From IMG/VR virus record IMGVR_UViG_3300029705_000039: a stretch of DNA of 64,000 nt, one strand, 5' to 3'. Made by a program: the position numbers and the translations under genes. The DNA is from a virus (lineage: Duplodnaviria; Caudoviricetes). Shown piece after piece: positions 2,925 through 63,739 of the stretch (position 1 is its first letter; the number at the start of each line of letters is the position of its first letter). The notes below the pieces were generated by a model. The model was not told the origin of the DNA. It searched no databases and worked only from the letters and a program-made list of their open reading frames with translations.

Positions 2925-3351
2925 TTTAATTAAAGAAGCACGTCGTGTACGCCCTTATATTGTAAAGGCCGCGATTTCTTTAGATGATAAGGAAATTAGC
3001 GAAGTTCCTGAGCTTTGTGATACTATGAAATATAGCGGTTCGCTTATTCCTTATCAAACTCGTATCAATTGGTATGGTAAAGTAAAGCGTGCTGTCGTTG
3101 ATTTATGGGATACCGAAGAAAATAACCCCGATAATGCGCCTTCTTTATGGGAAGATATTGCTTATAAACAAGGCTATCGTTATATTCCCGAAACTATCAC
3201 CGCGGCTTCTGCTTTTGTTAAAGATGAGCTTGGTTGGTGGAAGGAAACTTCACTATATAAGTCCCTCATTGACGCTAATGTCTGGACTCCCGAAGCATAT
3301 CCTGCTGGTTGGGAGTTAGTAAGAACTGAAGAATCTCCTATGATGGAATAA
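2917..3351 (+). CDS. Tail-associated protein with Trp-rich, carbohydrate-binding-like C-terminus
   Basis: NNPDNAPSLWEDI and LYKSLIDANVWTPEAYPAGW motifs. Confidence 0.65.
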   Translation: MYDLIKEARRVRPYIVKAAISLDDKEISEVPELCDTMKYSGSLIPYQTRINWYGKVKRAVVDLWDTEENNPDNAPSLWEDIAYKQGYRYIPETITAASAFVKDELGWWKETSLYKSLIDANVWTPEAYPAGWELVRTEESPMME

Positions 3352-3369
3352 TTTAAGGAGAGATAACAA

Positions 3370-4557: not shown

Positions 4558-4602
4558 TTTATATGGGAGGGCATATGCCCTCCCTTATTTTGGAGGTAAT
4601 TT

Positions 4603-5592
4603 ATGTCAGATTACCAAGAATTAGCCAATAAAGTATATCCGCCTTCTAATTTTTAGGATGGTAATGTACTTTATGGAGCAGATTTAAACACAGTTGAGAA
4701 TAATATCATAGAAATGGAAAAGCGTTTGCGGACCGAGCCTTTTAGTGTAGAAAGACTCAGCGGCGGCGTTAATAATGCAAGAATTTCTATTGATTTGCTT
4801 CCCACGTCCTTAGATGACATTATGGAATTTGAAACTTGGGAAGCTTTAAATGCTTTTACTGAAAAAGCAGAAGGCAAATTATATATTATAAAGAATACTA
4901 ACGCTATTTATCGTTGGGATATTGCGACGGGTGTTTTTATTGAAATGTCCGCGGGAGACATTGTTCGTGGTGAACCCATTGAAGAAGAAGATTCTTATGG
5001 CTATAATAATGCCATTTCTAATAGTAGTGTTGTGAAATATTTTGCACGCACTAAAGATTTTGAAGAACAAGACCCCAATTGGACTGGTATCGACCCCAAC
5101 ACTCTATATTTATATAATTCTGATATGTTAGGTGGCCAGCCCGCAAGTGCTTACGTGCTAAAGTCTGAATTAGGCGATGATGACGGTAGCGGACAAATAG
5201 AATATGTTGCTACGGATACTCAAAAACTGGGCGGCATTGTAGCAAGTGCTTACGCTTTAAAAAATGATTTAGCTCCCTTGTCTAATAATATCAATACCCT
5301 TATAGAATAGCAAGTTACTCTTCAAACAAAAGTGAGCGAACACGATACAGATATTGCGACCCTACAAGATACTATCGCGGCCTTAGAAGCAGAAAATGAA
5401 GAATTTACTACACAAGTGGCGACTTTAACGAATGATAATACCGCATTAAAATCTCGTTTAGCCGAGGTAGAAGAAAATATTACTTCTCTTGCCGCGATTG
5501 TAGCTAATTGCGTCCAATACAGTAATATGACTGAAGAACAAAAAACTTCTCTTCGTACTGAATTAGATTTAGTTTATTTAGAAGAAGTATAA
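4603..5592 (+). CDS. Tail/baseplate-associated protein with coiled-coil C-terminus (code 15)
   Basis: GGAGG RBS, ATG 4603; two in-frame TAG link ORFs 4714-5310 and 5332-5592. Confidence 0.75.
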
Positions 5593-5608: not shown

Positions 5609-6883
5609 ATGGCTTTAACATTAGACCCAAGTAAAATCCTAAGACCTATTCATCCTCTTTCTTAGGATGGATATCAATTTTTCCCATTAACACACTATAG
5701 CCAAATTATTATGGCTGACGGTAGCAGATGGAATGGTATCTCTGTTGATAAAGTAGTTGATGAAGAAGGCAATGAAATCTTTAAAATGCCGACCGACAAA
5801 TCTTTATTAATCGATGGCGCGCCAGCAGATGCTAAAATCACTGGTCAAAGAATTGATGCTTGTTTATTAAAATCAGGTGGCATTATGACCGGTACTTTGA
5901 GTATCGATAGAACCACTGGCGTTGCCGCGACTATTGATTTCATAAATAATACTAAACCAATTGCTCGTCTTACTGCAAATACTAATGGCAATCGTTTTAC
6001 TTTTTGGCAATTTAATGCCGCAGGAGCTTATGAATACTATCAATTACCAATAGTAAAGGTAGATGAGGCGATACCCGAAGATAATCAGCATTTAATTTTG
6101 ACTTCCAAAATGCCCGTTACAATCGAATAGGGTGGCACAGGAGCAACTGATGCAACAACGGCTCTGGTTAATTTAGGTGCTTTACCTCTAGCTGGTGGTA
6201 CAATTACTGGTCCATTGGTAACTGATGATATAGTAACTTTGAATAAACAAGTATTTGCAAAAGGTATTTTTAATAGTCAAGGCACTTTCTATGCTGAGTC
6301 ATTATTCCATATTCGCAATGGCAACTATAAGCCTACCTTGCATTTTAGTACATATCAATTATAGAGAGGTCAAACTAGCGGTTCAATCGTATATGCGGCC
6401 CCAGATACTACAAATGGTTATACGGCCAGAAGTCGTTTCTAGTTTTAGCAATTTAGTTATAATGGTAGTCTTGATGCAGTAACTACTGTATCAGAAACTT
6501 TCAATTTGCCTGATACAGCAGAAGGATTAGCGTCTTCAGAATCCTATAATATCCTTACCACTAAATCTCCCGTGACTGTCGCCCAAGGTGGCACCGGTGC
6601 GACGACTGCGGCAGCGGCTCGTGCGGCACTGGGAGCGGTAAATAAATCAGATATCGAGATTGCTTTGCCTGTTTCTGGTTGGGATAGTAATGGTGTTTAG
6701 ACAGTTAGCGTAGAACAAATTACTACCGAAAGTAGTGTATTGGTTGCGCCAAATCCTAGTGTATATGCGAGCTATCATCAATATGGCGTTTATTGCTCTG
6801 ATTAGGGTGATGGTACATTATCTTTTAAATACAGAATTAAACCTGAAATAGATTTAGTCGTCAATACTGTTATCTTTAATTAA
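5609..6883 (+). CDS. Tail fibre/receptor-binding protein, copy B (code 15)
   Basis: Paralogue of 484-1524 (PLTHYSQIIMADGSRW); VTIE(TAG)GGTGATDA aligns with VTVAQGGTGATDA. Confidence 0.8.
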
Positions 6884-6897
6884 GGAGGACATATAAT

Positions 6898-7998
6898 ATG
6901 GGTATTTATAATATAGGCGGCCCTTCTTATAGTCTTCCTATTTTAGATATAAGTTATCCGAAAGATATCACTATGCGAGAATAGGCTAATGGTTAGGCTA
7001 CTTTTGAAGTTAAAATTACCAGAGACGGCTTTCCTAATGACTATAAGTATTAGTGGTATGTGAATAATACAATAGTAGATGGGGCAACTAATATTTCTTA
7101 TACAATGACTGGCTTGACAGAAACCTCTAATTACACGTTATATTGTGTTGTTTCTAATGATGCCGGCAAAGTTATTAGCAAAACTGCCAATCTTACTGTA
7201 ACTAGCGCCTTAGCTTCTTATACTTTAAATGGCACTTCATATACAGCTCTAAGAGATCCTTACAGTAATAGTGGATACGATTGGCTAATTACCTTGACGG
7301 GTTCCACAACTCTTAAATTCTCTGATTTGGGAAATTGTGATGGCACCATTGATGTTTTCCTTGTAGGAGGTGGAGGAGGCGGAGGTAGCTTCGCAGGAAC
7401 TAGTAATTACTATGGTGGTGGCGGAGCTGGAGGTGGATATACAAAGACTTTCACGATGCCAGCTAGTATAAATACTAATTATATTGCTGAAATTGGTAGC
7501 GGTGGAGCTGGAGGTAGTAAAGCTAATGGTGATTCAGGAGGAATTACTAGTTTTAACGGAACTTCTATAAATGGTGGTTCTGGCGGTGGCACTTGGTGTA
7601 CCGGTGGGAATGGTGGCTCTGGCGGCGGCGCAGGAGAAAAAGGTGATGATAAAGCCGGCAACGGAGGTAGTAACGGTGGCAATGGTGGTAGTACCTCAAT
7701 TGATGGTAGCACCATGGCCGGAGGTACGGGACAAGGAGGCACCACTCGTGGTTTTGGTTCATCTTCATATGATTTATATGCCGGTGGCGGCGGTGGTGGA
7801 CAAGGTATAACCAGTGGCTCTCCAGGCACAGCAGGTACACCAGGAAATCGTGGCGACGAGACCAGCGGCGGTTGGTATAATGGAAGTAAGGTAGCACCAT
7901 TAGCCAATAGAGGCGGTGGTGGATGTGGCGGTGGCAATAACCATGGAACTGGACAAACTGGCGGCTCTGGTGTTATCCTTATCCGCAATCATAGATAA
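6898..7998 (+). CDS. Ig-like plus glycine-rich tail protein, copy B (code 15)
   Basis: Paralogue of 1531-2658 (TTLKFSDLGNC, NYYGGGG); three TAG in the N-terminus including KY(TAG)WY. Confidence 0.8.
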
Positions 7999-10939: not shown

Positions 10940-11707
10940 ATGGGTAATTTTATAGATTTGACTGGGCAAAAATTTTCACGGCTTACTGTAGTTGAACGCG
11001 ATTATAATTCAAAAATGGCTTAGAAATATAAAGTAGCATATTGGCTATGTAAATGTGATTGCGGTAATCCTAATTTAGTAAGTGTATCTTCTTCAAATTT
11101 ACGGCGTAATCAGGTTAAATCTTGCGGCTGTTTAAATCATGAAAAACGAGGACCGCGAGTTGTGCCTGATATGACTGGGCAAGTTTTTGGAGAATTAACT
11201 GTTTTAAGTCGTAACTTAGATTATTATGAATTAAAATAGAACGGAAGAAGTTATTGGAATTGTTTATGCTCTTGTGGTAATATTTGTGTTTATAGTAATA
11301 ATGCCTTAAAAACCGGACGTGCTATTTCTTGTGGTTGCTAGAAATCAAAAGGTGAGGCTTATATTAAAAGACTTTTATAGAAGGCTAATGTTGAATTCCA
11401 ATATTAGAGTAATCCATATAATTGGAAATTATCTTCTGGTTGGCAACCGCATTTTGATTTTTTCATTCATCATCCTATTACAAACAAGTGGTTCTTTTTA
11501 GAATATGATGGACGGTAGCATTATGAAGCTGATAAAAATGGATGGAATACAAATGAAAAATTAATTATTACTTAGCAACATGATTTAGAAAAGAATAAAC
11601 TTTGTTTTAAAAATCATATTCCTTTAAAACGTATCCCCTATTGGAAATTAGAAAATATAACAATTGAAAATATCTTAGATGATACATTTTTAATAAAGGA
11701 GAAGTAA
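10940..11707 (+). CDS. Putative homing endonuclease (repeated DLTGQKF/CKCDCG modules plus Vsr/PD-(D/E)XK-like nuclease domain), code 15
   Basis: MGNFIDLTGQKFSRLTV...WLCKCDCGN, second copy DMTGQVFGELTV; C-terminal FDF...LEYDGR(TAG)H; frame open only if TAG is read. Confidence 0.8.
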
Positions 11708-15014: not shown

Positions 15015-17614
15015 ATGAATACTTTTATGAATGGTCTAAAAAATACTACTAATTATGGTTATACCGAAAATGGAGCAATCAAGCATAATACTACTAAGTC
15101 CGCTCTATTGGATATGTTTGCTATGGGCGCTTCTATGCGTAATCGCAGTGATAATGATGTTATTCTGATGTTTAAGAATGCCTATGAGGAAAATCCCGAA
15201 TATGCTCTGAAGTGCCTATTCTATATCCGTGACATTCGCGGTGGTAAGCTCTTTGCCTGAGCCACCCTAAGCAGTAATGTTTAGTAAAAACTCTTTGAAC
15301 CCATGCTAAAGGGGTGTCGGTTTATCCGGCTAACGGTCCAGAAGTAAGTAATTACATTATGGGTAAGGGAACCTAAGTCCTAATAGGATACGGCAATACC
15401 GTGCTAAGCAACATTTTATCCAACAGAAAAATTTTCTATCTAAATAATCCCATTCTTTCACCTTTAAGGTGAAGGGGGTGAATTCTAAAATGGGATTCAT
15501 TTATAAGATTGAAAATTCAATTAATAATAAAATCTATATTGGTTTAACTAAAAAGGCTCGCCCGAGTGATAGATTTAGCCAGCACAGGTATTTAGCTCGT
15601 CACTTAAAAGAAAATGATAAATCTTTGCTACATAAGGCTATGGCAAAGTATGGAGTGGATAATTTCACTTTTACTGTCATTGAAGAAGTAGAAAATGAGT
15701 TAATGCCTATACGCGAATAGTATTGGATACAAGAATATAATTCGCAGCAACCTAATGGCTATAATATTACTGAAGGCGGCGAAGGAACGCCAGGTTTTTC
15801 TCGTCCTCAAGCTTAGGAAGAGCGTAAAAAACGCAGTATTAGTAATAAACAATTCTTCCAAGAACATCCCGAGGTTAGAGAAGTAGTTCGTGAAAGAACT
15901 AAACAATTATGGCAAAATGATGAATATAGATAGAAAGTAACTGAAAGCAATAAACGTTTTTATGCAGAACATCCAGATATGTTTCGTGGCGAAAATAATC
16001 CCTTTTATGGGAAGCATCACACAGAAGAAACTATTTAGAAAATTCGTTCTAAATCAAAATGCCAAGCTATAGCTCAGTTAAACAAAGATACCTATGAAGT
16101 AATTCAAGTATTTGACGGAGTAAAAGCAGCAGAAAAAGCATTAAGCGTTTCTCATGGCTGGCTTAGCAAAGCCGCACGAGCCGATAAAATTGCTTACGGT
16201 TTCCGTTGGAAATTTATTGAAAGTGTAACGACTAATTGTAATTCGGAGATTAGCACCGAATGAAGTGGAGAGCCCCTATATAGAATAGGGTGAAGAGATA
16301 GTCTGCGGAGCTATGAAAATAGCTTTTCAAGTGCAAGGAGAAAGACGCTTCTTCCGCGTTTGTATGAATTGGCTTGCAAAGAATGATGCTGCCGCCGCAG
16401 AGCGTAATATGAAATATATTGCAGAATTTGGTCGTTGGGATGACCTTTATACCTTTATTGATACCCCTCTGTCTGCTGAAGCTCTGGAAATTATTAAAAA
16501 GCAATTCATTCTTGACCTGTCTTGCGAGACTCCTTCTCTGCTTGCAAAGTGGATGAAGAGCGAAAATGCCTCTTCAAAGGAAACCAAGCGTCTTGCGGAA
16601 ATTACTCGTAAGTATATTGGTCTGTCTCATAAGGAATACCGTAAGGCCCTGTCTGTTCTACGTAAGCGCATCAATGTTCTTGAGCGTCTGATGTCTGCCG
16701 GTAAGTGGGACGAGATTGAGTTCGACAAGATTCCTTCTAAGGCAGGTCTAATTTACAAGAATGCCTTTGCTCGTCACGATATTATCAAGGAAAAGTATAA
16801 GGCTTTTGCGCAGGATAAGACTACTAAGGTAAATGCGGGCGCTCTGTATCCTTATGAAGTTGTAGAAAAGGCCCTTCGGTGCCGCTATAGTTTGATGGAT
16901 AATACTGACCGTCTGATGGTTAATAAGTATTGGGAAAATCTGCCTAATTGGGTAAAGGATGCGAATTTTAACGGTATTTGTGTTTGCGACACCAGCGGCA
17001 GTATGTCAGGAACTCCCATTAACGTGGCAATTTCTCTGTCTCTTTACTGCGCGGAACGTGCGGGTGGTCCTTTTGCGAACCATTATATCTCTTTTGCATC
17101 TCGTCCTCAGTTGATTGAAACTAAGGGTGTGGATTTTGTTGACAAGGTTCGTCGCATTTATGATACTAATCTTGTTGATAATACCAACATCGAGGCTGTA
17201 TTTGACTTATTGCTGGATACTGCCATTCAGAATAATTGTTCTCAGGAAGAAATTCCTCAGAACGTTGTGATTATTTCTGATATGGAATTTGATGCGGCCG
17301 CACATTCTTCCGATATCTATAGTTGGTATCGTAATGCCGCGCCTGCTCCTTCCTATAATCTTAATCGTAATAATGTTGAAACCGTAATGGAAGGCGTTGC
17401 TCATAAGTGGGCACAGCACGGTTATAAGATGCCTCATATTGTATATTGGAATTGTGATGCTCGTAATGATAATATTCCTATGATTGGTGAGGGCTTGATT
17501 TCTTATGTAAGTGGCTTTAGTCCCTCTATTTTCCAGACTATTCTTACTGGTAAAACTGGCTATGATTTGATGTTCGAAGCTTTGAATAATGAGCGTTATG
17601 CCGTAATTCACTAA
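15015..17614 (+). CDS. DUF2828-family vWA-domain protein (possibly Ro60/TROVE-like); two exons, 15015-15245 and 16334-17614
   Basis: Splicing gives FYIRDIRGG|QGERRFFR; TENGA N-terminus, GRWDDL, MIDAS-like DTSGSM and ISDMEFD; about 503 aa. Confidence 0.8.
15246..16333 (+). mobile_element. Group I intron carrying a homing endonuclease
   Basis: P1 GGTGGT/GCCACC with U.G at the 5' splice site, terminal G16333, R-like GTAACGACTA and S-like AAGAGATAGTCTG core elements; removal restores the frame. Confidence 0.85.
15490..16263 (+). CDS. Intron-encoded GIY-YIG homing endonuclease with NUMOD3 motif (code 15, 4 TAG)
   Basis: GFIYKIEN...IYIG; GYNITEGG; GENNPFYGKHHTEET; ends at TGA 16263. Confidence 0.85.
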
Positions 17615-19905: not shown

Positions 19906-21381
19906 ATGGCATATTGTGGTTATATTACTCGTCTAAAGAATGTGCGTAAGCATTCTAATGCTGACCGTCTGCTTCTTGCGGATTGTTTTGGTAATACTGT
20001 AATTGTATCTTTAGATTATGTTGAAAATCAGTTGGGTGTCTACTTTCCTTGTGATTTGCAGCTATCCGAAGAGTTCTGCGCCGCCAACGACCTTGTTCGT
20101 CGTAAGGACGAAAATGGTAATCCCGCTGGTGGTTATCTTGACCCTGATAAGCGAAACATCAAGGCTATGAAGCTTCGCGGCGAAAAGTCTGATGGTCTGT
20201 TCTTGCCGCTTACTTCTCTGGCGAACTTTACTACTATTTCTGACCTAAAGGAAGGCGACACCATTACTATTTTGAATGGTGTAGAGATTTGTAAGAAGTA
20301 TATTCCTAAGGTTAAGAATCGCGGAGAATGGCATGGTGGCTCCAGGGGCCGCAAGACCAAGGTAAATTTTGCCCCTACCTTCGCACAGCACGTAGATACC
20401 GAGCAGTTGGCTTATCATTTAAATGATTTCCGTGCGGGTGATGTAGTTGAACTTACTTTGAAGATGCATGGCACCTCTGGCCGCACTGGCTACTTGCCGC
20501 TTATTAAAGGCTATGCTGACTCTTTTGGTTGCACCGCAGGCAACATTATTCGTAAGATTTCTGCTCGTCTATTGAAGCGGCCCATTCCTGAACTTCATCA
20601 CGATGGTAAGCCTATTTATGAATATGGCTATGTGACTGGCACTCGTCGTGTTGTGCTTGATGAAAAGCACGATGGTGGTTTCTATGATGATAATCAGTTC
20701 CGCCTTGAAATGGCTAAGAAGTTTGAAGGTAAGCTTCATAAGGGCGAGACTGTTTATTACGAGATTGTTGGTTTCGTAAATGAAAATACTCCTATTATGG
20801 CATCTGTGAAGAACTCTAAGATTAAGGATAAAGAGTTCTCTAAGATGTATGGTGAAGAAACTGTATTCTCTTATGGTTGCGACCCTCAGGGTCGTTGGGA
20901 AGAGGTGCGTTATACTGTTCCGGCCGATGAACCTGGCGATGATGGTATTCTTCCTCCCAAGTGCGAAGTTTATATTTATCGTATGACTATGTCTAATGAC
21001 GAAGGCGATGTTGTTGAAATGTCTCCCGAACAGATGCGTCTGCGTTGCGACCAGATGGGCGTAAAGTATGTGCCGGTATTTGAGAAGTTTATGATTCCGG
21101 ACATGGGTGTAGATGTTGATAAGGATGGTATCGCGGACGCTCATGTTATCTCTCCTGGCGAATATGTTCTGCGTAAGGTGGAGCAGTATTTTGATGGTCC
21201 CGATCCTATTGGTAAGACTCATATCCGCGAAGGCGTTGTAGCGAGAATTGTAAATCGTCCTACCATTGCGGTATACAAACACAAGAACTTTAACTTCAAA
21301 ATTCTCGAAGGAATTATTAAAGATGAAGCTTCCGCTCCTGATATGGAAGAAGCTCAGGATGTTATTAACGAAGGAGTATAA
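19906..21381 (+). CDS. ATP-dependent RNA ligase (DRB0094-like, with N-terminal OB-fold)
   Basis: N-terminal RKHSNADRL and KLRGEKSDG; nucleotidyltransferase motifs KMHGTS (I), EGVV (IV), YKHK (V). Confidence 0.75.
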   Translation: MAYCGYITRLKNVRKHSNADRLLLADCFGNTVIVSLDYVENQLGVYFPCDLQLSEEFCAANDLVRRKDENGNPAGGYLDPDKRNIKAMKLRGEKSDGLFLPLTSLANFTTISDLKEGDTITILNGVEICKKYIPKVKNRGEWHGGSRGRKTKVNFAPTFAQHVDTEQLAYHLNDFRAGDVVELTLKMHGTSGRTGYLPLIKGYADSFGCTAGNIIRKISARLLKRPIPELHHDGKPIYEYGYVTGTRRVVLDEKHDGGFYDDNQFRLEMAKKFEGKLHKGETVYYEIVGFVNENTPIMASVKNSKIKDKEFSKMYGEETVFSYGCDPQGRWEEVRYTVPADEPGDDGILPPKCEVYIYRMTMSNDEGDVVEMSPEQMRLRCDQMGVKYVPVFEKFMIPDMGVDVDKDGIADAHVISPGEYVLRKVEQYFDGPDPIGKTHIREGVVARIVNRPTIAVYKHKNFNFKILEGIIKDEASAPDMEEAQDVINEGV

Positions 21382-28710: not shown

Positions 28711-29568
28711 ATGGTTAATTTTTATTTACCTGATTTTTACGAACAATTTAAGTTAAATCATTCCCTTATCTTGCTCCTCAAGGAGCATCCCGAGTATTTT
28801 ATTGATGGTCTTCGCATTGGTGCCGTCTATGGCAGTTATCCTGGTGCCATTTGGAATGGCGGCCGTTTATATTATGGCAGCACCAGTAATGAAAACATTA
28901 TTAACACTACTGCCGCATTTAATGAGTTAGATGTTCCCTTGCGCTTTACTTTTACTAATAATCAACTCTTGCCGCGCCATTTTTATGATAATTATTGTAA
29001 TCTAATTATGGAATTATGTAGTAATAATATGAATGAAGTATTAGTAAATGATATTGGTTTAGAGAATTATATTAGAATGAATTATCCTAATTATAAAATA
29101 GTTGCTTCTACTACCAAATGCGAGCGTAATATAGAGGAAATTAATAAATTTACTAAGCGCTATGATCTTGTTGTGCTTGATTATAATGATAATCATAACG
29201 AGGAATTTCTAAATAAGATTAATGATATCGAGAAAATTGAACTCCTTATTAATGCCTATTGCTATCCAAATTGTCAATATCGTAAGGAACATTATACGCA
29301 ACTATCTAAAGACCAATTAAATTGCGCCTACGGCACTACCTTTGAATGTGATGCTATGAAGCACGGATTTTACGATATTTTAGATTTTTCCACTATTATT
29401 ACGCCACAACAAATTCAAGAATATTATATTCCCAAAGGCTTTCAGCACTTTAAAATTGAAGGTAGAACCCTCCATCCAGTTGATATTTTAGAAAGTTATA
29501 TTTATTATCTTGTAAAAGATGAATATAAAGATAAAGTTAGATACAAATTACTTAAGGAGATATGGTAA
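28711..29568 (+). CDS. U32 peptidase-like protein
   Basis: WNGGR, ELLINAYC..C, FKIEGR motif. Confidence 0.55.
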   Translation: MVNFYLPDFYEQFKLNHSLILLLKEHPEYFIDGLRIGAVYGSYPGAIWNGGRLYYGSTSNENIINTTAAFNELDVPLRFTFTNNQLLPRHFYDNYCNLIMELCSNNMNEVLVNDIGLENYIRMNYPNYKIVASTTKCERNIEEINKFTKRYDLVVLDYNDNHNEEFLNKINDIEKIELLINAYCYPNCQYRKEHYTQLSKDQLNCAYGTTFECDAMKHGFYDILDFSTIITPQQIQEYYIPKGFQHFKIEGRTLHPVDILESYIYYLVKDEYKDKVRYKLLKEIW

Positions 29569-39976: not shown

Positions 39977-40684
39977 GTGGTGAAAATAATGAAAATCCGT
40001 CAAGCCCCTGTGGCTGATTTACTGAAATATATTGGAGAATTATATGCTAATCGCAACCATAATAAACAAAAGAGTATTTTTGATGTTATTAATAACTATT
40101 ATTGCTCTTTAAGTAAGCATAAGACTATTATGCCAGTTGCGGGCGACTATTTTAACGATTGGTGCGATTTAAATTGGAGTCCCACTATGAAGAATTGCCC
40201 TAATATTCCTGGTATTATTATTTATAAAGATAATCCAAATGGCACAAGAAAATATGGACTAATCTATCATAGTGGCTATATTATTTCCGAGCCACTTCAA
40301 ACTAATTATATGTCTTTTTATGAAATTGATAATAATGGTCGTGTATCTTCCCATGTTTATTGTAAGGATGATTGGGATGGTTGGGGCGCGCCTATAAGAT
40401 TTTTTAGCTTCCCGCCAGAAGATTATGTTGATAGTAGCACTTGGACTTTAGGTGAACGTGTATTATCAAAAGATGTATTTGGCCACGACGTAAGGCAATT
40501 ATAGGCTTTATTACATAGAGCGCACGAGGAAGTGCCATTACATGGCTACTTTGAAGACCAAACCCTAAAAGCACTACATTTAACGCAATATTGGTGTAAT
40601 ATTCCTCAAACCAATAGCTTCAACTTAAATAGTGTTGAAGGCAAAAAAATTATTGAGTATTTAACCAATGGTAATAAAGATTAA
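39977..40684 (+). CDS. Protein with C-terminal peptidoglycan-binding domain (code 15)
   Basis: GHDVRQL(TAG)ALL...GYF...T..A matches the PG_binding_1 pattern DV..LQ..L. Confidence 0.7.
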
Positions 40685-42125
40685 ACTATCTAGAGAAGAG
40701 AATATCAATTATTATGGCTCTTCTGAAATTGAACTTGATATTGAGGAATATTTAAAAGGTGTAGTTCCAAGCGAAATTGGTAATGCTCATATTGAAGCGT
40801 GCGCGGCCTAGGCTGTATGCGCTCGCACCTATGCGGTAATTAAAATTAATTCCAAAGGCTATATTACTGATGAGTCCGCAAAAGATTAGGCATTTCGGAC
40901 TTCTCGTTTAACTGGCTATCCCAATGCTTATGAAGGAATTAAAAAGACAGCGGGAGAAATATTATATTATAATAATAAAATTGCTCACTGCTATTATAGT
41001 TCTTCTAATGGCGGCCGCACTACTTCTTCAAAGGAGCGTTGGGGCGGAGACTATCCTTATCTAATTAGTTAGGATGACCCCTATGATAGTGGTAGCGGTA
41101 ATGGCCATGGTGTGGGCATGAGCCAATTAGGAGCAAAGAATCGTGCGGCCGCGGGTCAAACTTATAATGAAATTTTAAGCTTCTATTTTCCCGGCACATA
41201 TGTGCGAGGAGATGAATCTAAAGTAATGACAATCGAACAATTTATTTTAAATTGGTGTAAAGAAAGAGTAGGAAATCCTTATATTTATGGTGCAACTCAA
41301 AAGAAATGTACCGTTTCTTATCGTAAGGAACGCATGGCACAATATCCAAGCTTTGCCGCGAATATTAAAAAATATTGTTATGTCTTAAGTGGCAAGGGCT
41401 CTGCCTGTTCCAACTGTAAATGGTATGACAAAGAGCGCAATACTCATAAATATGCTTATGACTGTGCTCAATTTATTCGTTGGGGCGCAAACGCCGCGGG
41501 CCTGCCACCTGTGAAAAGTGGCGCAACAAGTCAGTGGAAAAGTGATATTTGGCAAGAGAAAGGCGATTTTAAGGATATTCCTACTAATAAGTTATGTTGT
41601 GTTTTCCGTGACAAAAATGGTACAAAAGAACATGTTGGATGGTATTATAATGGCATTGCCTATCACGCCCAAGGACATTCCACTGGTGTGGTAGCGACTG
41701 ATAATAAATAGTACAAATCTTGGACACATTATGCCATTATGACAGGTATTTATACCTCTAATGGTGTTCCTATTGAACTTAGTAATAATATTTAGCCTGA
41801 AACTTAGGATGTGATTAAAGTGCTTTATCAAGCAAAAGTAAAATCTACCGATACAAAATTAAATATGCGCAAGGAGCCTAATAAGTCTTCCGAGCGTATT
41901 ATGTATATTCCACCTCAAGGTATGGTTGATGTTATTGAAGAAACTAATGCAGATTGGTGGAAAGTTATTTATGCTGGCGAGACTGGCTATGTAATGTAGG
42001 AATACTTAACTAAGGAGTTAAGTGATACTTCTAAGGACTATTATATTAAAATAAAATGCGGGAGTGAGGCAGATGCAAGGCTTATAGCAAAAGCGCTCCA
42101 AGGCGCAGCAGTCATAGAGGGGTAA
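40668..42125 (+). CDS. Modular endolysin: SpoIID/LytB-like, NlpC/P60-like and SH3b domains (code 15, 7 TAG)
   Basis: EEYLKGVVPSE...AA(TAG)AVCARTYA, GHGVGMSQLGA; GNPYIYG..DCAQF..HVG; LNMRKEP...WWKVIY..GYVM. Confidence 0.85.
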
Positions 42126-43266: not shown

Positions 43267-43295
43267 TTGACAAAAATAAAAAATCATTATATAAT
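43267..43295 (+). promoter_or_regulatory. sigmaA-type promoter for the Leu / ncRNA / suppressor tRNA unit
   Basis: TTGACA-17-TATAAT. Confidence 0.8.
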
Positions 43296-43556: not shown

Positions 43557-43647
43557 TGGGGATTGGTGTAATGGCAGCACGGCGGACTCTAAATCCGTGA
43601 GCCCCCTGAAGGCGTAAGTCAGGGTTCAAATCCCTGGTCCCCAGCCA
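43557..43647 (+). tRNA. Amber suppressor tRNA (anticodon CTA) with Gln-type acceptor and long variable arm
   Basis: TGGGGAT/GTCCCCA-G-CCA; GCGGA-CTCTAAA-TCCGT with CTA at 43589-43591; 21-nt variable region. Confidence 0.9.
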
Positions 43648-43717: not shown

Positions 43718-43775
43718 GTTTAAGTAAAAATATAAGCGCCTATATGGCGCTTTCTTTGTATAAGGAGTGATTCCC

Positions 43776-44387
43776 ATGGCTGTTTAGGGTGAAAAAATTT
43801 CATATTCTGAATTATTAAATTGGTATGAAGTATTTAATAATCTTGCTACCAATTATAGTGAAAATGTTACCGCTTTATCAATTCCTGTTTCTGGTAAAAA
43901 GGCTGAGCCTTCAGATATTAATAACCTTCATGAAAAAATTAATCAATTTCGTTCTGATACTTATCTCGGCACAAAGGCAGAATGGTTCCCTATTGGAACT
44001 GATGTAAGTAAAAATGAATATATTCGCGCTATTGACCCTACTGCTATTCTTGGCGTAGTTTCTAATGCTACTTTAGTAAAATGTCGAAATGTAGCTACTA
44101 ATACTTGTGGCGTTCATGGCAGTGGTTCTTTAAGCCACGGCAGTAAAGGGAATGGTACGTGGGGCAATACACAAAAATCTTGTGGCACAAAGTCGCATGG
44201 AGACTGGCACAATGAAGGTAATACCGATGGATGGTATTCTAGTGGTAAGAAAACGAATGGATGGTGGAGCCATAGTACCCGCAGTTGCGGAGAGCATGGT
44301 TGCGGCACTAATAATCATGCCAGCAAAGGCAACACAACTGTAATTGATATTACCTGTGTCCATTCTACAAAAGTTAATCAAGCCTAA
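43776..44387 (+). CDS. 203-aa protein with 16 C-terminal pentapeptide repeats; candidate radical SAM substrate (code 15, TAG at codon 4)
   Basis: AAGGAG RBS, ATG GCT GTT TAG, open to TAA 44387; absent from the ORF track. Confidence 0.8.
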
Positions 44388-44395
44388 GGAGTATT

Positions 44396-45772
44396 ATGGA
44401 ACATCTTTATAAAAATCTTTCTACTGTAGTTTTTTATACTTGCGGCACCTGTAATCTTAAATGCCGTTATTGTGGTATTAATAAAAATCCAATATTAAAA
44501 GATATAGATAGTGCTCTTGCCAAAAGTTTTGAAGGAGATTATTACTTTCGACGAGTAAAAGATTATTTCCCCCGTAAAGATATGCTACTTAACTTTGAAA
44601 CTTGGGGCGGCGAACCTTTTCTCCATATGGAGCGTTTATATCCAGTTTTAAAAACTCTATTGGATTATTATCCTTACTTACAAAATGGTTATTCTTCTAC
44701 CAATTTTTCTTTTGAAAATTGGAATGAAAAATTTTTTGGTTTAATGGACTGTTTTGGACAATATCCAAATCGCTTATTTAAATATTGTCTACAGCTTTCA
44801 GTAGATGGCCCTGAATATATTAACGATGCTGGCCGCGGAACAGGTGTAACTAAAAAATGCTTGGCTAATTTTAATAAATTAGTAGCGCTTTTAGCGGCGG
44901 GCCGCCTACCTAAAAATGTAGACCTAACCATTACCCTAAAGGGAACTTTAGATAATGACACTATTAAACAACTTTGTCAAAAAGATAAGATTATAGAGTA
45001 TTTTCAATTTTATGAAAATAATTTTATAAATCCTATCAAACAACTAAATTTATCTAATGTTGATATCATTCCCACAATTCCTAATACTGCGGTCCCTTCT
45101 CCTGTTACTAAAGAAGATGGAAAAATCTTTGCTAAACTAGTTAAGCTTTGTCGCGAAATCGAAGAAGAGAATAAGACTTGTAATTATTTTAATTATTATA
45201 ATATAATTACACCTTATTATAGTAATATCTGCCAAAATTGTTTAACCTACAAATATGGTTGGCATACTTGCGGCACAGGAGATAGCGTTATCGGTTTATT
45301 ACCTGATAATATGGTTTCTACCTGCCATGAGGGTTTTACCCAAATTGTAGAAGAATATCAAAAATTAGCGGCACAAGATAAGAATCTTAATTCTACGATT
45401 ACTTTCGATAAATTTAGAGATGAACAAGCGATTAGTTTATGCGTCGATGACGAAGGATTTTATGAACATCACTATAAAATGTCTTTATATCAACACGATG
45501 ATGCCACAGCACGTGTCGCAACTAGTGCTAGTTTAATTGTAGCATTAGCTCTTGCCAAACAAATTGATGAATGCTATATTAATCAGACTAACGCTTTAAA
45601 GGCCGCGATTTTTATTCAAAGTCATACTTCTTATTGTATTAAAGACAACTACAATAAGACTGGTTCTTACACTCTACCGCCCGTAGGTTTATATAAATTA
45701 TTACTTAACGGTGCGATGGAATACATACAAGGAGAAGGAGAACTAAAAGTTAATGATGTTAGAAAAGACTAA
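44396..45772 (+). CDS. Radical SAM protein 1
   Basis: CNLKCRYC, WGGEP, LSVDG, downstream CGTG...TCH (SPASM/twitch-like). Confidence 0.9.
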   Translation: MEHLYKNLSTVVFYTCGTCNLKCRYCGINKNPILKDIDSALAKSFEGDYYFRRVKDYFPRKDMLLNFETWGGEPFLHMERLYPVLKTLLDYYPYLQNGYSSTNFSFENWNEKFFGLMDCFGQYPNRLFKYCLQLSVDGPEYINDAGRGTGVTKKCLANFNKLVALLAAGRLPKNVDLTITLKGTLDNDTIKQLCQKDKIIEYFQFYENNFINPIKQLNLSNVDIIPTIPNTAVPSPVTKEDGKIFAKLVKLCREIEEENKTCNYFNYYNIITPYYSNICQNCLTYKYGWHTCGTGDSVIGLLPDNMVSTCHEGFTQIVEEYQKLAAQDKNLNSTITFDKFRDEQAISLCVDDEGFYEHHYKMSLYQHDDATARVATSASLIVALALAKQIDECYINQTNALKAAIFIQSHTSYCIKDNYNKTGSYTLPPVGLYKLLLNGAMEYIQGEGELKVNDVRKD

Positions 45773-47165
45773 AAATATATTTCAAAAGGAGCAAGATGCT
45801 CTTTTACAAACTGTCTTGGGGCTAAGATTCTTAGACCCCTGGACAGATAAAGAATATGATGATTTCTCATTGGTAGCAGATGCTAACCTAGAAATCTTTA
45901 TTACTAGCGCTTGTAATCAAAAATGCGAATATTGCTATCTAATTAAACATAAAGATTTATATCCGCAAGAATTTCGAGATAAAAGTTTAATATTAGATAA
46001 TTTAAGAAAATTATATGATTGGATTTATGATAATAATTATCATATCCCTCTTTGTACTTTTTTCTCTGGTGAAATTTGGCATATCAATTTTGGTTTGGAA
46101 GTATTAGATATTACTTTAGAATATTTAAAGAAGGGAATTAATATCGATAGATTTATGATTCCTTCTAATTGTTCTTTTGTCTTAGATGAATCTCAACTAG
46201 AAAAAATTCAAACCTATATTGATCTATTTGATAAATATGGATATCCTCTACAATTTTCTATTTCAGTAGATGGCGCTATTTTAGAATCTGAAACGAGACC
46301 ATTAAATAATGGAATTGCCAAAACAGAAGATTATTATGATAGATTATTTCTATTTGCTAAACATAATAATTATTATTTTCATCCAATGGTCAGCGCCTTT
46401 AGCGTGGAAAAGTGGATAGAAAATTACAAATGGTGGGAAAAACAATTTAACAAATGGGATATGAATATTTCAGCCTTAATGATGTTAGAGGTTAGAAATG
46501 ATGATTGGACAGAAGAAAAAATCACCGCTTATACATCCTTTCTTAATTTTTTAATTGATAAATATTTTGAAGAAGAATGTGGAAAAAATGTAGAAGTGTT
46601 TTCTAATCGTCTAATGAATATTCGCAATTATATTCCACAAAAAATTCATCCTGCCGAATTAGCCGGTTATACTCCTTGGGCATTACCAGAAACTGACAGT
46701 TTTATTGGTTGTACCTGCGCTAATGAACTAACTGTACGGCTTGGCGATTTGGCAATTATACCTTGCCATAGATTGGGATATAATAAATATAAATATGGCA
46801 ACTTTACATTAAAAAATAATCATATTGACACAATTGAAGCAAATAATCCTCAAATGGCAGTTAAAATCTTAATGAGCAACTTTAATCTTGCTAGTTTTGG
46901 TTGCGATACTTGTTTATTTAATCATTATTGCCTTAAAGGGTGCTATGGTAGCCAATATGAAAATATGGGCGATCCATTTATTCCTGTTCCGAATATTTGT
47001 AACTTCTTTAAAAAGAAATATAGTTTTCTTTTACAAAAGTATAAGGATATGGGAGTATTTGATTATTACAAAACTATTGCACCGCAGGAATTAGAATATC
47101 CGCGTATTAAGAAATTATTAGACCTTTTTGAAGAGTGGGAGGTTTCGCCGCTATGCAATGGATAA
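45753..47165 (+). CDS. Radical SAM/SPASM protein 2
   Basis: CNQKCEYC, ISVDG, PCH...CDTC....YCLKGC.......IC. Confidence 0.9.
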   Translation: MMLEKTKNIFQKEQDALLQTVLGLRFLDPWTDKEYDDFSLVADANLEIFITSACNQKCEYCYLIKHKDLYPQEFRDKSLILDNLRKLYDWIYDNNYHIPLCTFFSGEIWHINFGLEVLDITLEYLKKGINIDRFMIPSNCSFVLDESQLEKIQTYIDLFDKYGYPLQFSISVDGAILESETRPLNNGIAKTEDYYDRLFLFAKHNNYYFHPMVSAFSVEKWIENYKWWEKQFNKWDMNISALMMLEVRNDDWTEEKITAYTSFLNFLIDKYFEEECGKNVEVFSNRLMNIRNYIPQKIHPAELAGYTPWALPETDSFIGCTCANELTVRLGDLAIIPCHRLGYNKYKYGNFTLKNNHIDTIEANNPQMAVKILMSNFNLASFGCDTCLFNHYCLKGCYGSQYENMGDPFIPVPNICNFFKKKYSFLLQKYKDMGVFDYYKTIAPQELEYPRIKKLLDLFEEWEVSPLCNG

Positions 47166-47497
47166 ACGGTATGAAAATGTTCCCTTATGGGCGAACTCCA
47201 GTACAAAATATTACTCTAGAACAATTAGAGAATGATAATATAGAAGAAATTAATATGTATCTCTTGAAAATGGCGCGCCAAATGATTATTTATTAGGAAT
47301 TAGTTAGTTGGAAAGCTGATGGAACTCGCTCTAATAAGTATGCTTACAATATTTTCCCTGATGATTTGCCTGATAATGTATCTTGTTTAAGTGCTTATGG
47401 TCAAAAGATGGTTAATGATTGGTATTCTAGAAATAAATACCATGGCGATAAAGGAGTAAAGCAGACAGATGTTGGATTTAATTATACCGGTATATAA
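47153..47497 (+). CDS. Small hypothetical protein in the radical SAM operon (code 15)
   Basis: GGGAGG RBS, one in-frame TAG, overlaps both neighbours. Confidence 0.65.
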
Positions 47498-48479
47498 TAA
47501 TTTGGAAGGGTTGTATAGAACTTTGTTATCTATTGGTGCGGAAACTAAGCAAAAAGTTTACGTGACTATTGTAGATGATGCCTCAGATATTAACTATGAT
47601 GAAGTGATTCCGCTATTCCAAAAACTTTTCCCTATTCGTATTCTAAAATTAAGTGAAAATATGGGTCCTGGTGTGGCAAGACAGCAAGGCATACGAGAGA
47701 CTAATAACCCATATTTTTCTTTTATTGATTGCGGCGATACATTTTATTCTCCTTTAATATTGCCTACGATGTTAGAAGCAATAGAAAAGCATCCTCAAGC
47801 AATGATGTTTTCTTGGGCTCATATAGAAGAGAATAGCGATGGAAGTTTGGATATGGTTAATTCTTATCATAATCGCATTCATGGTAAAATTTATAATAGG
47901 GAGTTTATAAATAAACATAATATTACTTTTTCTCAATTATCCCCGTATGCAAACGAAGACATCGGCTTTAATCTTGCGTGTCGTATGATATTAAAATCTT
48001 TATATCCTGAAACAGCATTGTATTCTAATGAAGATGCGGCAGTTGTATGGAAATGGAGCGGTCCTTCTATTGTTCGTGCGAATGACTGTGAATTCTATTA
48101 TAGAAAACAACATTTAGGATTGGCTTTGAACAGTTTACACGCGATTAATATAGCAAAAGAAAATAATGTATTAGAGCGTATAATTATAGAAGAAATATAT
48201 ACAACAATGATATATTTATATATGTTCTATTTACAAACTTTATATGTAAGGCCGCAATTTAAAGATGAGGCTTATATGGGTTGCAAATATTATTATTCAA
48301 AAATTTTTAGAGAATATGGGATAAAAAACCCATCTTTATTTAGAGATTATTACTATAAAGTGCTACTTTCTTTCCTCTCCGATGAAGATGACCCAATGCT
48401 ACAATCTCTTGTAAGTTTTGATGTTCTTAAATTCTTACAAGAATTGGAGGAAAATACGCATGAGGGACTTAAAAATTAA
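47469..48479 (+). CDS. Glycosyltransferase family 2
   Basis: LIIPVYN, VDDAS, GPGVARQ.G, FIDCGD, NEDIGF. Confidence 0.9.
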   Translation: MLDLIIPVYNNLEGLYRTLLSIGAETKQKVYVTIVDDASDINYDEVIPLFQKLFPIRILKLSENMGPGVARQQGIRETNNPYFSFIDCGDTFYSPLILPTMLEAIEKHPQAMMFSWAHIEENSDGSLDMVNSYHNRIHGKIYNREFINKHNITFSQLSPYANEDIGFNLACRMILKSLYPETALYSNEDAAVVWKWSGPSIVRANDCEFYYRKQHLGLALNSLHAINIAKENNVLERIIIEEIYTTMIYLYMFYLQTLYVRPQFKDEAYMGCKYYYSKIFREYGIKNPSLFRDYYYKVLLSFLSDEDDPMLQSLVSFDVLKFLQELEENTHEGLKN

Positions 48480-49221
48480 ATAGGGCTTTGTAACCTTATT
48501 ATCTTCTGAAAATTATATAGAAGCGGTTTTAATTCTGAATGCCAGCCTAAAAGCAGTGCAATCTAAATATCCCTTAATAGTTGCCTGTACTCCTTCTGTA
48601 ATAAAAAATGAACGCATTATTGCGGCTCTGCTAGCAGAAAATTGTATAGTAGAGCCAATAGCACCATTACGTTTTCCAGAAGGTTTAGAACATCTTCTAC
48701 AAAAAGATTATCCTAATTTGCCAAATCTTTTAAATACCGGCGCGAAATTAGAAGTATTTTCTTTGAAACATTATGATAAACTCGTCTTTATCGACGCAGA
48801 TGGATTTTTGGTAAAAAATATAGATTTTTTATTTAATAAAAAAGATGGCTCTTCTACTATTCAAAAAGACGAGCGCGATGAAATTAGTAGTAATTGTAGT
48901 GTTTTTGTTTTTTGCCCTCGTAATCATAATATAAATTTTTATCGAGGCCTAGTATTTAAAATGGGGCACAATGATGGCGCAGTTTTTGAAAGTATGTGGT
49001 TTTAGGTTAAAGACAATGAAGATTATAGAATAAAAGATAATATCTATTATCTTCCTTTTGATGAAAATATACATACTGAAGTCTATGGTTATCATTTATG
49101 GAAACCGCATTTAAAATATTGGTTATTAAAAGATATGCCTAATACAGATTTAGCTAATTTGTATAAAAACTTTTTAATACCAATTAGAGCCAAATATAAA
49201 TTTGACTTTTCTCAAAAATAA
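48460..49221 (+). CDS. Glycosyltransferase family 8 (glycogenin-like), code 15
   Basis: GFVTLL...Y...VLILNASL...SKYPL; KLEVF...YDKLVFIDAD; two TAG. Confidence 0.8.
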
Positions 49222-49259: not shown

Positions 49260-49511
49260 ATGAATAATCATATTCGTGCCCATATCCAATTAACTACCTT
49301 AGCCGATATTAACAATTTCGTAAATGAACTTAATAAAGATAATTTCACTAATTGTTATACTCTTGAAAATTTCGATGGCTCTCTACGTGTCAATGCACGC
49401 TCAATTCACGGTATAATTTATGCCGCGAGCGATTATAATGATGAAATGTTTTTAGTTAATGAAAGTAATGATGGTGCTTTCCCGTCAAGCATTGATAAAT
49501 ACAGAGTTTAA
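49260..49511 (+). CDS. HPr-like protein
   Basis: RVNARSIHGI resembles the HPr VNAKSIMG motif. Confidence 0.55.
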   Translation: MNNHIRAHIQLTTLADINNFVNELNKDNFTNCYTLENFDGSLRVNARSIHGIIYAASDYNDEMFLVNESNDGAFPSSIDKYRV

Positions 49512-49514
49512 AAT

Positions 49515-49543
49515 TTGACAATTTTAAAAAAATAGTATATAAT
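49515..49543 (+). promoter_or_regulatory. sigmaA-type promoter of the main tRNA array
   Basis: TTGACA-17-TATAAT. Confidence 0.8.
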
Positions 49544-55135: not shown

Positions 55136-55291
55136 AGCCGAGTAGCCAAGTGGAAAGGCACGGGACTTCGTAAAGTAGTGTAATTGGTAGCAATGTTTCC
55201 GGTTAGCGCGCAGGGGACGGTGTTGGTTCGAATCCAACCTTTACGGCCATGACTCCCGCATTCGCTGGTTCGAGCCCAGCCTCGGCTGCCA
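55136..55291 (+). tRNA. tRNA-Gln(TTG) split in its anticodon by a nested tRNA-like element (exons 55136-55168 and 55250-55291)
   Basis: Joining CGGGA-CTT | TGAC-TCCCG gives a normal cloverleaf with AGCCGAG/CTCGGCT-G-CCA. Confidence 0.85.
55169..55249 (+). ncRNA. Nested 81-nt tRNA-like element ending in CCA
   Basis: CGTAAAG/CTTTACG-G-CCA, D arm, T arm GTTGG-TTCGAAT-CCAAC, non-canonical anticodon arm (7-bp stem, 12-nt loop). Confidence 0.8.
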
Positions 55292-62950: not shown

Positions 62951-63739
62951 ATGGGATTAATTTATATGCTAACCAGCCCCAGTGGAAGATCTTATATTGG
63001 ATAGACAAAGCGACCCTTTACTATACGATGGAATCAGCATAAAAGAGAGGCGGAAACTGGAAATGATACTCCTCTTTATAAAGCCATACGAAAATATGGC
63101 GCCGATTCTTTTTAGCATACAATATTAATAGAAACAGATAATGACAAATTAAATGAGTTAGAATAGTATTATATTAAATAGTATAATACGTATAATAATG
63201 GTTATAATTGCACTATCGGTGGCGAAGGAAATTGCAAAATTTCTGATGAGACTATTATTCAACTTTGGGAGAGTGGGTTGTGCTCAGCAGATATAGCACG
63301 GCAATTAAATGTATAGGGACATACTATTGAAAATAGAATTAAAAGTCTTTATTCTGATGCTGAAATATAGGAACGTCGATACGCTTCAATTGGGAAAAAA
63401 CTTCAATTAAAAGATAATAATATAAAAACTCTATGGGATTAGGGCTATAGTGTTACTTAGATTTCGGATATATTATCCTATGATAGACATACAGTAAGCC
63501 GTGTTTTATAGAGACTGGGAATTACTCCTGAACAGTTAGAATATTCTAGAAAGGCCCACAGCGGTGATAAGAAAAATTCTCCCATAATACAATATGATAA
63601 AAATGGTAATTTTATATAGGAATGGTTTTCAATTAGTGAAGCGGCGAGACAATTAAATATTCACGCTGGTAATATTTGCAAAGTTCTAAAAAAAGAAAGA
63701 AAAACTACTGGTGGTTATATATTTAAATATAAGGAGTAA
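62951..63739 (+). CDS. Free-standing GIY-YIG homing endonuclease with HTH/NUMOD1 domains (code 15)
   Basis: GLIY...SYIG(TAG)T = YIGQT; NGYNCTIGG; many TAG. Confidence 0.85.

Follow-up and report, generated by a model that had tools for sequence, protein, structure and literature searches.

A repeat protein concealed by TAG recoding heads a putative radical SAM maturation cassette in phages

In the 64,000-nucleotide stretch of Caudoviricetes DNA analysed here (IMG/VR record IMGVR_UViG_3300029705_000039, hereafter the window), a gene for a 203-aa repeat protein, which we call Rep, is followed by genes for two radical S-adenosylmethionine (SAM) enzymes, rSAM1 and rSAM2, and by a small open reading frame (ORF) (Table 1). 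We consider it on balance probable that these genes form a phage-encoded maturation cassette, with Rep as the late-expressed, dedicated substrate of rSAM1, rSAM2 and the ~110-aa product of the small ORF. The gene, the family to which it belongs, its motifs, the gene order around it and the superfamily of the two enzymes were all observed.

Profile hidden Markov model (HMM) searches of six-frame ORFs gave a set of 17 independent loci, comprising the window, 12 IMG/VR or metagenome loci, and four contigs of metagenome-assembled genomes (MAGs) binned with Faecalibacterium, Bacilli, Clostridium and Lachnospiraceae. A Rep-family ORF immediately precedes the rSAM1-rSAM2 pair in all 16 independent loci that include upstream sequence (the window and 15 others); the sequence of the remaining locus, L025, is cut at rSAM1. 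This order extends to the most divergent clade, L019, in which the enzymes are ~40% identical and a divergent Rep lies 1 kb upstream. Two complete cassettes that diverge from each other, L010 and L023, share a 193-kb phage contig (IMGVR_UViG_3300028591_000087), one with a 559-aa Rep and no YcaO gene, the other with a YcaO gene and a 257-aa Rep. The original prediction of a modified repeat protein had named radical SAM pairs lacking a repeat ORF as the finding that would speak against it; none was seen among the 16 loci.

Starting from IMG/VR homologues of rSAM1, we collected the Rep-like ORFs upstream of them and built a profile of their N-terminal 110 residues. This profile retrieved 17 proteins in one database and, in a library of 1.84 billion proteins, 237 cluster representatives (50% identity), 111 of them at E ≤ 1e-10. 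Nearly all members have the domain from residue 1, a (K/R)CRN junction, a polar low-complexity tail, and a conserved C-terminus of the form T-x-I-D-I-[T/L]-[C/N] ... T-K-x-N. Rep is thereby the founder of a large family without a name: Pfam, NCBIfam, PHROGs and PADLOC hold no family for Rep or for the small ORF, and tblastn searches of GenBank phages returned no match for Rep and one weak match for rSAM1. The rSAM1 family is of similar standing, with 414 clusters at 90% identity, almost all of them unnamed.

The repeat region of the window's Rep had been described as 16 in-register pentapeptides at residues 109-188, and this description held up, with position 3 distributed as N5/C4/H4/S2/D1 and position 4 occupied by G in 11 of 16 units. 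At lags 5, 10 and 15 the Gly-Gly autocorrelation stands at 8, against at most 4 elsewhere, a periodicity that was reached by 0 of 20,000 shuffles. At the DNA level the corresponding 15-nt periodicity is weak (0.38 versus ~0.27), and the pattern is therefore kept at the protein level, with no recent duplication. Diversification by a diversity-generating retroelement was considered and rejected, the window holding no template copy of the repeat region.

Across the family, the tails consist to 63% of N, S, G, T and C, are net basic in 82% of cases, and reach 450 aa in length. A five-residue periodicity, which had been proposed as the hallmark of such ORFs, is indeed the commonest (periods 5, 10 or 15) but not the sole one, since periods of 9, 8, 7 and 4 (true CXXX arrays) occur too; in the window, the Rep tail contains just 6 Cys and lacks a CXXX period. 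When motifs were counted in 103 Rep-family tails and compared with shuffled tails, the common denominator proved to be the tripeptide [S/T]-[N/C/H]-G, with 474 occurrences where 119 were expected (z = 34.6); S-N-G alone gave z = 27.8. Signatures of several known modifications were tried on the same tails and discarded: the N-glycosylation sequon N-x-S/T is not enriched (z = -1.3), nor are the patterns of three-residue cyclophanes (aromatic-x-N, z = 1.3; aromatic-x-polar, z = 2.0) or of the streptide-type cross-link (K-x3-W, z = 0). Thioether-only chemistry is unlikely to be universal, since 10 of the 103 tails contain at most one Cys.

The part of Rep that precedes the repeats behaves differently. 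It had been called a leader-like region of about 105 aa, and its conservation was confirmed, but in an AlphaFold2 model built with a 55-sequence alignment it appears as a helical domain at a predicted local distance difference test score (pLDDT) above 90, and not as a disordered leader. This model, which superseded a five-sequence one at pLDDT 64, places helices at residues 10-27, 45-60, 64-70 and 89-100 and leaves residues 114-181 disordered at pLDDT below 50. The repeats lie between two short modelled strands, at 105-109 and 187-191, the second of which extends into the C-terminal motif. The repeats may thus form a long loop shut by the junction strand and the conserved C-terminal strand.

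Comparison with the nearest relative, P0003, follows the same division. Identity is 101/108 (93.5%) in the N-domain, 58/80 (72.5%) in the repeats and 15/15 at the C-terminus, the repeats being significantly more divergent than the rest (p = 2e-5, Fisher test), with changes at position 3 confined to N, C, H and S. Among close relatives of L001, lengths run from 201 to 287 aa through repeat expansion. At the level of sequence, the combination of a conserved N-region and hypervariable repeats supports a substrate-like pattern, resembling the precursors of RiPPs (peptides synthesized by the ribosome and modified post-translationally).

Fold searches gave the Rep model no convincing relative. Foldseek against the PDB returned nothing at E ≤ 0.001, and a BFVD fold search gave weak matches only, to uncharacterized phage proteins. 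IglD and the TssK neck were rejected as fold relatives, as a wide VIA search reached a maximum of Z = 6.1, which lies under the noise for helical domains. A shape search of the ESM Atlas led to viral hypothetical clusters, to one cluster with 23% of its members labelled PF27846 ('rSAM target Cxxx repeat'), and to phage proteins that bear fn3 or Flg_new repeats and an N-terminal module similar to that of Rep; in Atlas clusters near Rep the PF27846 label is found on 23-25% of members. PF27846 itself was not seen in our Pfam scans, even for Rep members with CXXX arrays, and the model is perhaps missing from the Pfam copy scanned.

Both enzymes have the hallmarks of radical SAM proteins. The CX3CX2C motif is invariant in six sequences of each family (C19/C23/C26 in rSAM1, C54/C58/C61 in rSAM2). 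Four to five further conserved Cys in rSAM1 (C155, C252, C292, C310, C414) make up a twitch-like auxiliary site, and rSAM2 has an invariant seven-Cys SPASM set (C320, C338, C384, C387, C393, C397, C416) that follows the SPASM pattern C-x(9-17)-G-x4-C, C-x2-C-x5-C-x3-C, C. The domain models for rSAM2 score short of their thresholds (PF04055, 26.4 bits versus 29.5; TIGR04085, 22.3 bits versus 27). All six members of each family examined matched models of peptide/protein maturases, among them PapB (1.9e-11) and the twitch rSAM NF033640 (best 5.7e-15, for an rSAM1 member), as well as nif11-rSAM, QhpD, HxsB, WgkB, SCIFF, YhhB, DynA, CcpM, GggB and the CXXX-target maturase. Searches of the PDB with the rSAM sequences and profiles gave marginal matches only, to the SPASM region of CteB (E = 0.024, the best, from rSAM2) and to ChlB. 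Judged by these sequence features, rSAM1 and rSAM2 belong to the SPASM/twitch maturase superfamily and to no defined family within it.

The tight coupling proposed for the downstream genes was borne out, with an 8-nt gap after Rep and overlaps of 13-29 nt between successive genes. The small ORF, which begins with the motif W-x-N-x-D-K-[IM]-F, has homologues after rSAM2 across several clades and in most loci, and is probably the fourth core component of the cassette. Two glycosyltransferases had also been assigned to the operon, and both genes are present in the window, but locus counts make them accessories and not a conserved part. The glycosyltransferase family 2 (GT2) gene is well supported (PF00535, 65.7 bits versus a cut-off of 23.3, residues 4-127; GT-A relatives in the PDB at ~8e-6) and recurs in 7 of the 17 loci, with a GT-like protein in three more. 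The glycosyltransferase family 8 (GT8)-like gene is a weak call (PF01501, 20 bits versus 24.3), in which a D-x-D-like D-A-D motif is present, and apart from the window it was found, weakly, on one other contig.

Other candidate tailoring genes vary between loci. A YcaO gene (PF02624, E = 1.7e-30) stands directly beside Rep in 6 of the 17 loci (L003 at 3144-4946, L007 at 6203-7981, L012, L017, L023 and L024), and none occurs in the window. Cys-rich, U32-like proteins of ~300 aa with a weak Peptidase_U32 signature (E = 0.003) are encoded inside the cassette in 6 of 17 loci, for example in L003 (9225-10172) and L005 (10043-11814). The U32 family includes oxygen-independent hydroxylases, and these proteins might be further tailoring enzymes. 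The window has a homologue of the L005 protein (37% identity, E 1e-56), 15 kb from the cassette, and its link to the cassette is uncertain.

These results can be assembled into a working mechanism. The core cassette would consist of Rep, the twitch-like rSAM1, the SPASM enzyme rSAM2 and the ~110-aa partner, joined here by GT2 and the GT8-like protein. The enzymes would dock on the folded N-domain together with the invariant (K/R)CRN junction, and rSAM1 and rSAM2 would act by hydrogen-atom abstraction in the disordered, hypervariable [S/T]-[N/C/H]-G repeats, installing covalent changes such as cross-links or Cα/Cβ chemistry, including epimerization. Glycosyltransferases could then decorate Ser, Thr, Cys or Asn, with YcaO or U32-like tailoring in other phages, and the modified product would be freed at lysis or mounted on the virion.

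Several family members bear on the form of that product. P0145, a protein of 702 aa, has the whole Rep module placed after InlB-type B-repeat domains, which argues for a protein that stays intact, and P0108 and P0123 carry insertions within the N-domain; both arrangements fit a folded domain that is kept more readily than a leader that is discarded. A modified protein that retains its N-domain is the more likely product, rather than a small cleaved peptide. Candidate roles include a virion tip or adhesin, an exclusion or counter-defence effector, and a released peptide. More speculatively, and with a modest chance of being right, the private rSAM pair, with optional YcaO, U32-like and GT enzymes, may build a cross-linked, glycosylated and fast-diversifying display loop, held between two scaffold strands and formed by new chemistry on [S/T]-[N/C/H]-G. 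Such a loop might act as a receptor-binding or adhesion tip of the virion, or as a phage counterpart of HxsA (see below) that blocks the entry of competitors.

Some observations weigh against a cassette that matures Rep into an intact protein. We infer the modification of Rep, its chemistry and the function of the product from gene context. Every match of the two enzymes to an rSAM model lies far below the curated cut-off, and therefore the chemistry of known families cannot be transferred to them. A RiPP recognition element (RRE) or PqqD-like domain was not detected, and the small ORF found no family match in library scans; with the CX3CX2C motif at residue 19 in rSAM1 and 54 in rSAM2, an RRE fused at the N-terminus would not fit. 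No protease or exporter family was found in the window's block or in the cassettes of its relatives, where weak U32-like matches are all that was seen. Domain fusions are rare (one clear case among the 237 clusters), and the strand pairing around the repeats is modelled at moderate confidence (pLDDT about 64-79). Finally, the cassette adjoins lysis genes and tRNA arrays and lies outside the tail-fibre module at 0-8 kb.

The closest working and architectural analogue is the HXS antiphage system, the likeness being one of mode of action and not of family. In HXS, the 214-aa HxsA, a protein with short repeats, is matured by HxsB, HxsC and the small HxsD, acquires +8 Da at a specific site, and thereafter works as a protein (PMC13128918). 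The Rep cassette likewise combines a ~200-aa short-repeat protein with two rSAMs and a small partner, and its product would likewise be a matured protein; members of its rSAM families match the HxsB model weakly (best, 8.5e-8 and 4e-6), and the tails are mostly net basic. The differences are considerable. HXS is bacterial whereas the Rep cassette is phage-borne, and the gene order differs. H-x-S is not enriched in Rep tails (61 observed versus 80.7 expected, z = -2.5), and Pfam shows no peptidoglycan-binding domain in Rep. The cut-offs of HxsB (TIGR03978) and HxsC (TIGR03977) are not reached (19.2 bits versus 370 for the window's rSAM2), there is no match to HxsD, and the repeat region of the Rep family is much longer and hypervariable.

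A second comparison is with the SPASM/twitch RiPP maturases (PapB of the ranthipeptides, SCIFF/CteB, the TIGR04115/PF27846 system, CefA/CefB, GrrM/OscB and other cyclophane formers). As in the cassette, a precursor gene lies beside the rSAM gene and combines a conserved recognition region with a variable core; the seven-Cys SPASM set of rSAM2 and the true CXXX arrays of the Rep members P0092 and L012 add to the likeness. The Rep cassette differs in having two rSAMs per substrate and a folded N-region of ~105 aa, and in being phage-borne and TAG-recoded. Membership in the CXXX-target system is not supported, as the window's rSAM1 scores 16.8 bits against a TIGR04115 cut-off of 350 and the best family member reaches 2e-6. 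QhpC/QhpD offers a further parallel, a SPASM rSAM acting on a protein subunit, and QhpD is the best single NCBIfam match of rSAM2 (3.2e-9). This match is limited to the SPASM region (35.9 bits versus 453), the cassette lacks dehydrogenase subunits and the QhpE protease, and Rep is unrelated to QhpC.

The initial description of Rep as a pentapeptide-repeat protein was right as to the repeat itself, a period of five across 80 residues being shared with PF00805 (the Rfr-type quadrilateral β-helix), but did not stand as a family assignment. Pfam scans of Rep gave no family at E ≤ 0.01 or E ≤ 1. The Rep unit is centred on N/C/H followed by G, and with one Leu and no Phe among 80 repeat residues it departs from the A(D/N)LXX consensus with its central hydrophobic L/F. 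As for the right-handed quadrilateral β-helix, the model shows no strands at residues 114-181, where its confidence is low (pLDDT below 50), and such a fold may still exist there. The cassette therefore fits no defined family, HXS, the CXXX-target system and PF00805 having each been considered as a home for it.

Almost all that is known of radical SAM maturation of ribosomal products comes from bacterial peptide natural products. Literature searches on phage rSAM RiPPs, 'CXXX repeat' and 'Cys-every-fifth' turned up no relevant work. The Rep family, which is large (414 rSAM1 and 237 Rep clusters) and almost entirely unnamed, provides a defined and testable set of substrates and enzymes from which new rSAM chemistry on so simple a unit as a tripeptide could be discovered, and possibly a new route by which phages obtain hypervariable surface or effector proteins. 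It is also a concrete case of the content that is lost when recoded phages are annotated with translation table 11, the family being partly invisible to standard gene calling. HXS, described in 2026, is the first rSAM-matured protein effector in the conflict between phages and bacteria; the Rep cassette would place the same logic on the side of the phage.

The strongest alternative, although in our view unlikely, is that the cassette encodes a classical RiPP, whose N-domain is a long structured leader (like those of NHLP and Nif11) and whose repeat core is modified, cut at or near KCRN, and freed at lysis as one or more small bioactive peptides, bacteriocin-like or signalling. A hypervariable core behind a conserved N-region is a mark of RiPPs, as is a precursor gene beside its maturase, and the invariant KCRN falls exactly at the junction between the two parts. 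YcaO genes beside Rep, the matches of rSAM2 to nif11-leader and PapB maturase models, and the CXXX and Cys-every-fifth-like arrays of some Rep members all fit this reading too. However, neither the window nor the other loci offer a protease or exporter for leader removal and export, and tails of up to 450 aa are hard to square with small peptides. The modelled placement of the C-terminal strand beside the junction strand suggests that the repeats are a loop of one folded unit, and the 702-aa fusion sets the module inside a multidomain protein. Of the phage RiPP-like pathway first proposed for these genes, the synteny of Rep with the rSAM genes, the maturase-like enzymes and the conserved-N/variable-repeat pattern have therefore been upheld, while the processing and export machinery of a RiPP was not found.

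We give considerably less credence to the view that Rep is an unmodified low-complexity protein and that the two enzymes act on a nucleotide, a tRNA or a metabolite, their adjacency to Rep reflecting a shared placement in the late operon. Both rSAMs match prokaryotic viperin models weakly, the block is embedded in tRNA arrays, and sequence provides no direct link between enzyme and substrate. The viperin matches, however, cover the CX3CX2C region of the radical SAM core only, and the best and most consistent matches of both enzymes are to SPASM/twitch peptide maturases. The order Rep-rSAM1-rSAM2 is moreover strict in 16 independent loci down to ~40% enzyme identity, and in one phage the cassette is duplicated as a whole unit.

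The existence of the gene depends on how TAG is read. The prediction of a hidden gene with TAG at codon 4 was confirmed: an AAGGAG ribosome-binding site (RBS) lies 8 nt ahead of the ATG, the frame closes with TAA at codon 204, and the absence of any alternative in-frame ATG, GTG or TTG start makes Rep uncallable under table 11. All seven genes of the Rep block stop with TAA. In-frame TAG occurs in Rep (codon 4), the small ORF (codon 48) and the GT8-like gene (codons 8 and 182), all to be decoded by the suppressor tRNA(CUA), and is absent from rSAM1, rSAM2 and GT2. In the rSAM genes of relatives, alignment columns with in-frame TAG hold Gln in 15/15, 14/16 and 13/16 of the other sequences. With TAG over conserved Gln, a tRNA(CUA) present and TAG unused as a stop, the lineage matches genetic code 15; the alignments support TAG as Gln in the lineage of Rep phages, and for the window's own phage the assignment is carried over from these relatives.

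A spurious origin of Rep, as a chance open frame that appears only because TAG is read as sense and that table 11 does not show, is effectively excluded by the hundreds of homologues and the family profile (some homologues, in L003 and L005, are free of TAG), by the RBS and the CUA tRNA directly upstream, by the TAG codons over invariant Gln columns in relatives, and by an N-domain modelled at pLDDT above 90. The variable region of the suppressor tRNA measures ~21 nt, a class II length, yet TAG acts as Gln in the relatives; a Gln suppressor tRNA with a long extra arm would be unusual. In L022 (5933-8395), Rep and rSAM1 become one frame when TAG is read through; there, Rep may actually end at TAG, and recoding may not be common to all carriers of the cassette.

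Transcription of the block likely starts, judging from its sequence, at the putative sigma-70-type promoter, a perfect consensus match, upstream of tRNA-Leu(CAA), the suppressor tRNA and Rep; no further strong plus-strand promoter was found between this site and position 43776. The GC-rich hairpin ahead of Rep may be a leaky terminator or a processing site between the tRNAs and Rep. Because only this weak hairpin, and no other strong promoter, separates them, Rep is probably co-transcribed with the suppressor tRNA that its codon 4 requires, which suggests that the block is transcribed from the tRNA promoter through the hairpin. A second 12/12 sigma-70-type promoter lies at 49515-49543; the two bracket the Rep block, and each stands ahead of a tRNA array.

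Table 1. Features of the Rep cassette and its surroundings, in positions of the window
Feature	Position	Strand	Remarks
U32-like homologue	28711-29568	+	15 kb from the cassette
Sigma-70-type promoter (putative)	43267-43295	+	12/12 consensus match; upstream of tRNA-Leu(CAA), suppressor tRNA and Rep block
tRNA, anticodon CUA (amber suppressor)	43557-43647	+	91 nt, long variable region; directly 5' of Rep
GC-rich hairpin with weak T tract	43734-43752	+	24 nt 5' of Rep start; from sequence
Rep, predicted cassette substrate	43776-44387	+	ORF with TAG as sense; RBS; family profile
Rep N-domain, residues 1-105	43776-44090	+	conserved; pLDDT ~90 or more over residues 11-100
KCRN junction closing the N-domain, residues 102-105	44079-44090	+	C103 and N105 invariant in 55 sequences
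Rep repeat region, residues 109-188	44100-44339	+	16 pentapeptides x-[S/G/T]-[N/C/H/S/D]-G-x; predicted disordered
Rep C-terminal motif V-I-D-I-T-C ... T-K-x-N	44340-44384	+	15/15 identical to nearest relative
rSAM1, 458 aa	44396-45772	+	no N-terminal extension; 8-nt gap after Rep
rSAM2, radical SAM/SPASM, 470 aa	45753-47165	+	20-nt overlap with rSAM1
Small partner ORF, 114 aa	47153-47497	+	TAG at codon 48; overlaps rSAM2
GT2 glycosyltransferase, 336 aa, accessory	47469-48479	+	PF00535; overlaps small ORF
GT8-like, 253 aa from ATG 48460 (267 aa from TTG 48418)	48460-49221	+	two TAG codons; overlaps GT2

Just upstream of the cassette, at 40668-42125, a SpoIID-plus-SH3 protein with seven in-frame TAG codons is probably an endolysin; the order of lysis genes followed by the cassette is common to the window, L007 and L012. 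On the other side, an 83-aa ORF (49260-49511) adjoins the cassette; it has no family match, and homologues of 44% identity stand beside the cassette, upstream, in L001/L009 and L027. Elsewhere in the window, HNH and GIY-YIG homing-endonuclease genes (10940-11707 and 62951-63739) contain 7 and 10 in-frame TAG codons, and recoding is therefore not limited to structural or lysis genes. The genome carries 25 tRNA genes, and ARAGORN placed a tRNA with a four-base anticodon (agcg) at 55169-55249, within the second tRNA array. An RNA-binding protein (phrog_850, 16265-17614) and an RNA ligase (phrog_968, 19906-21381) together suggest a tRNA repair module.

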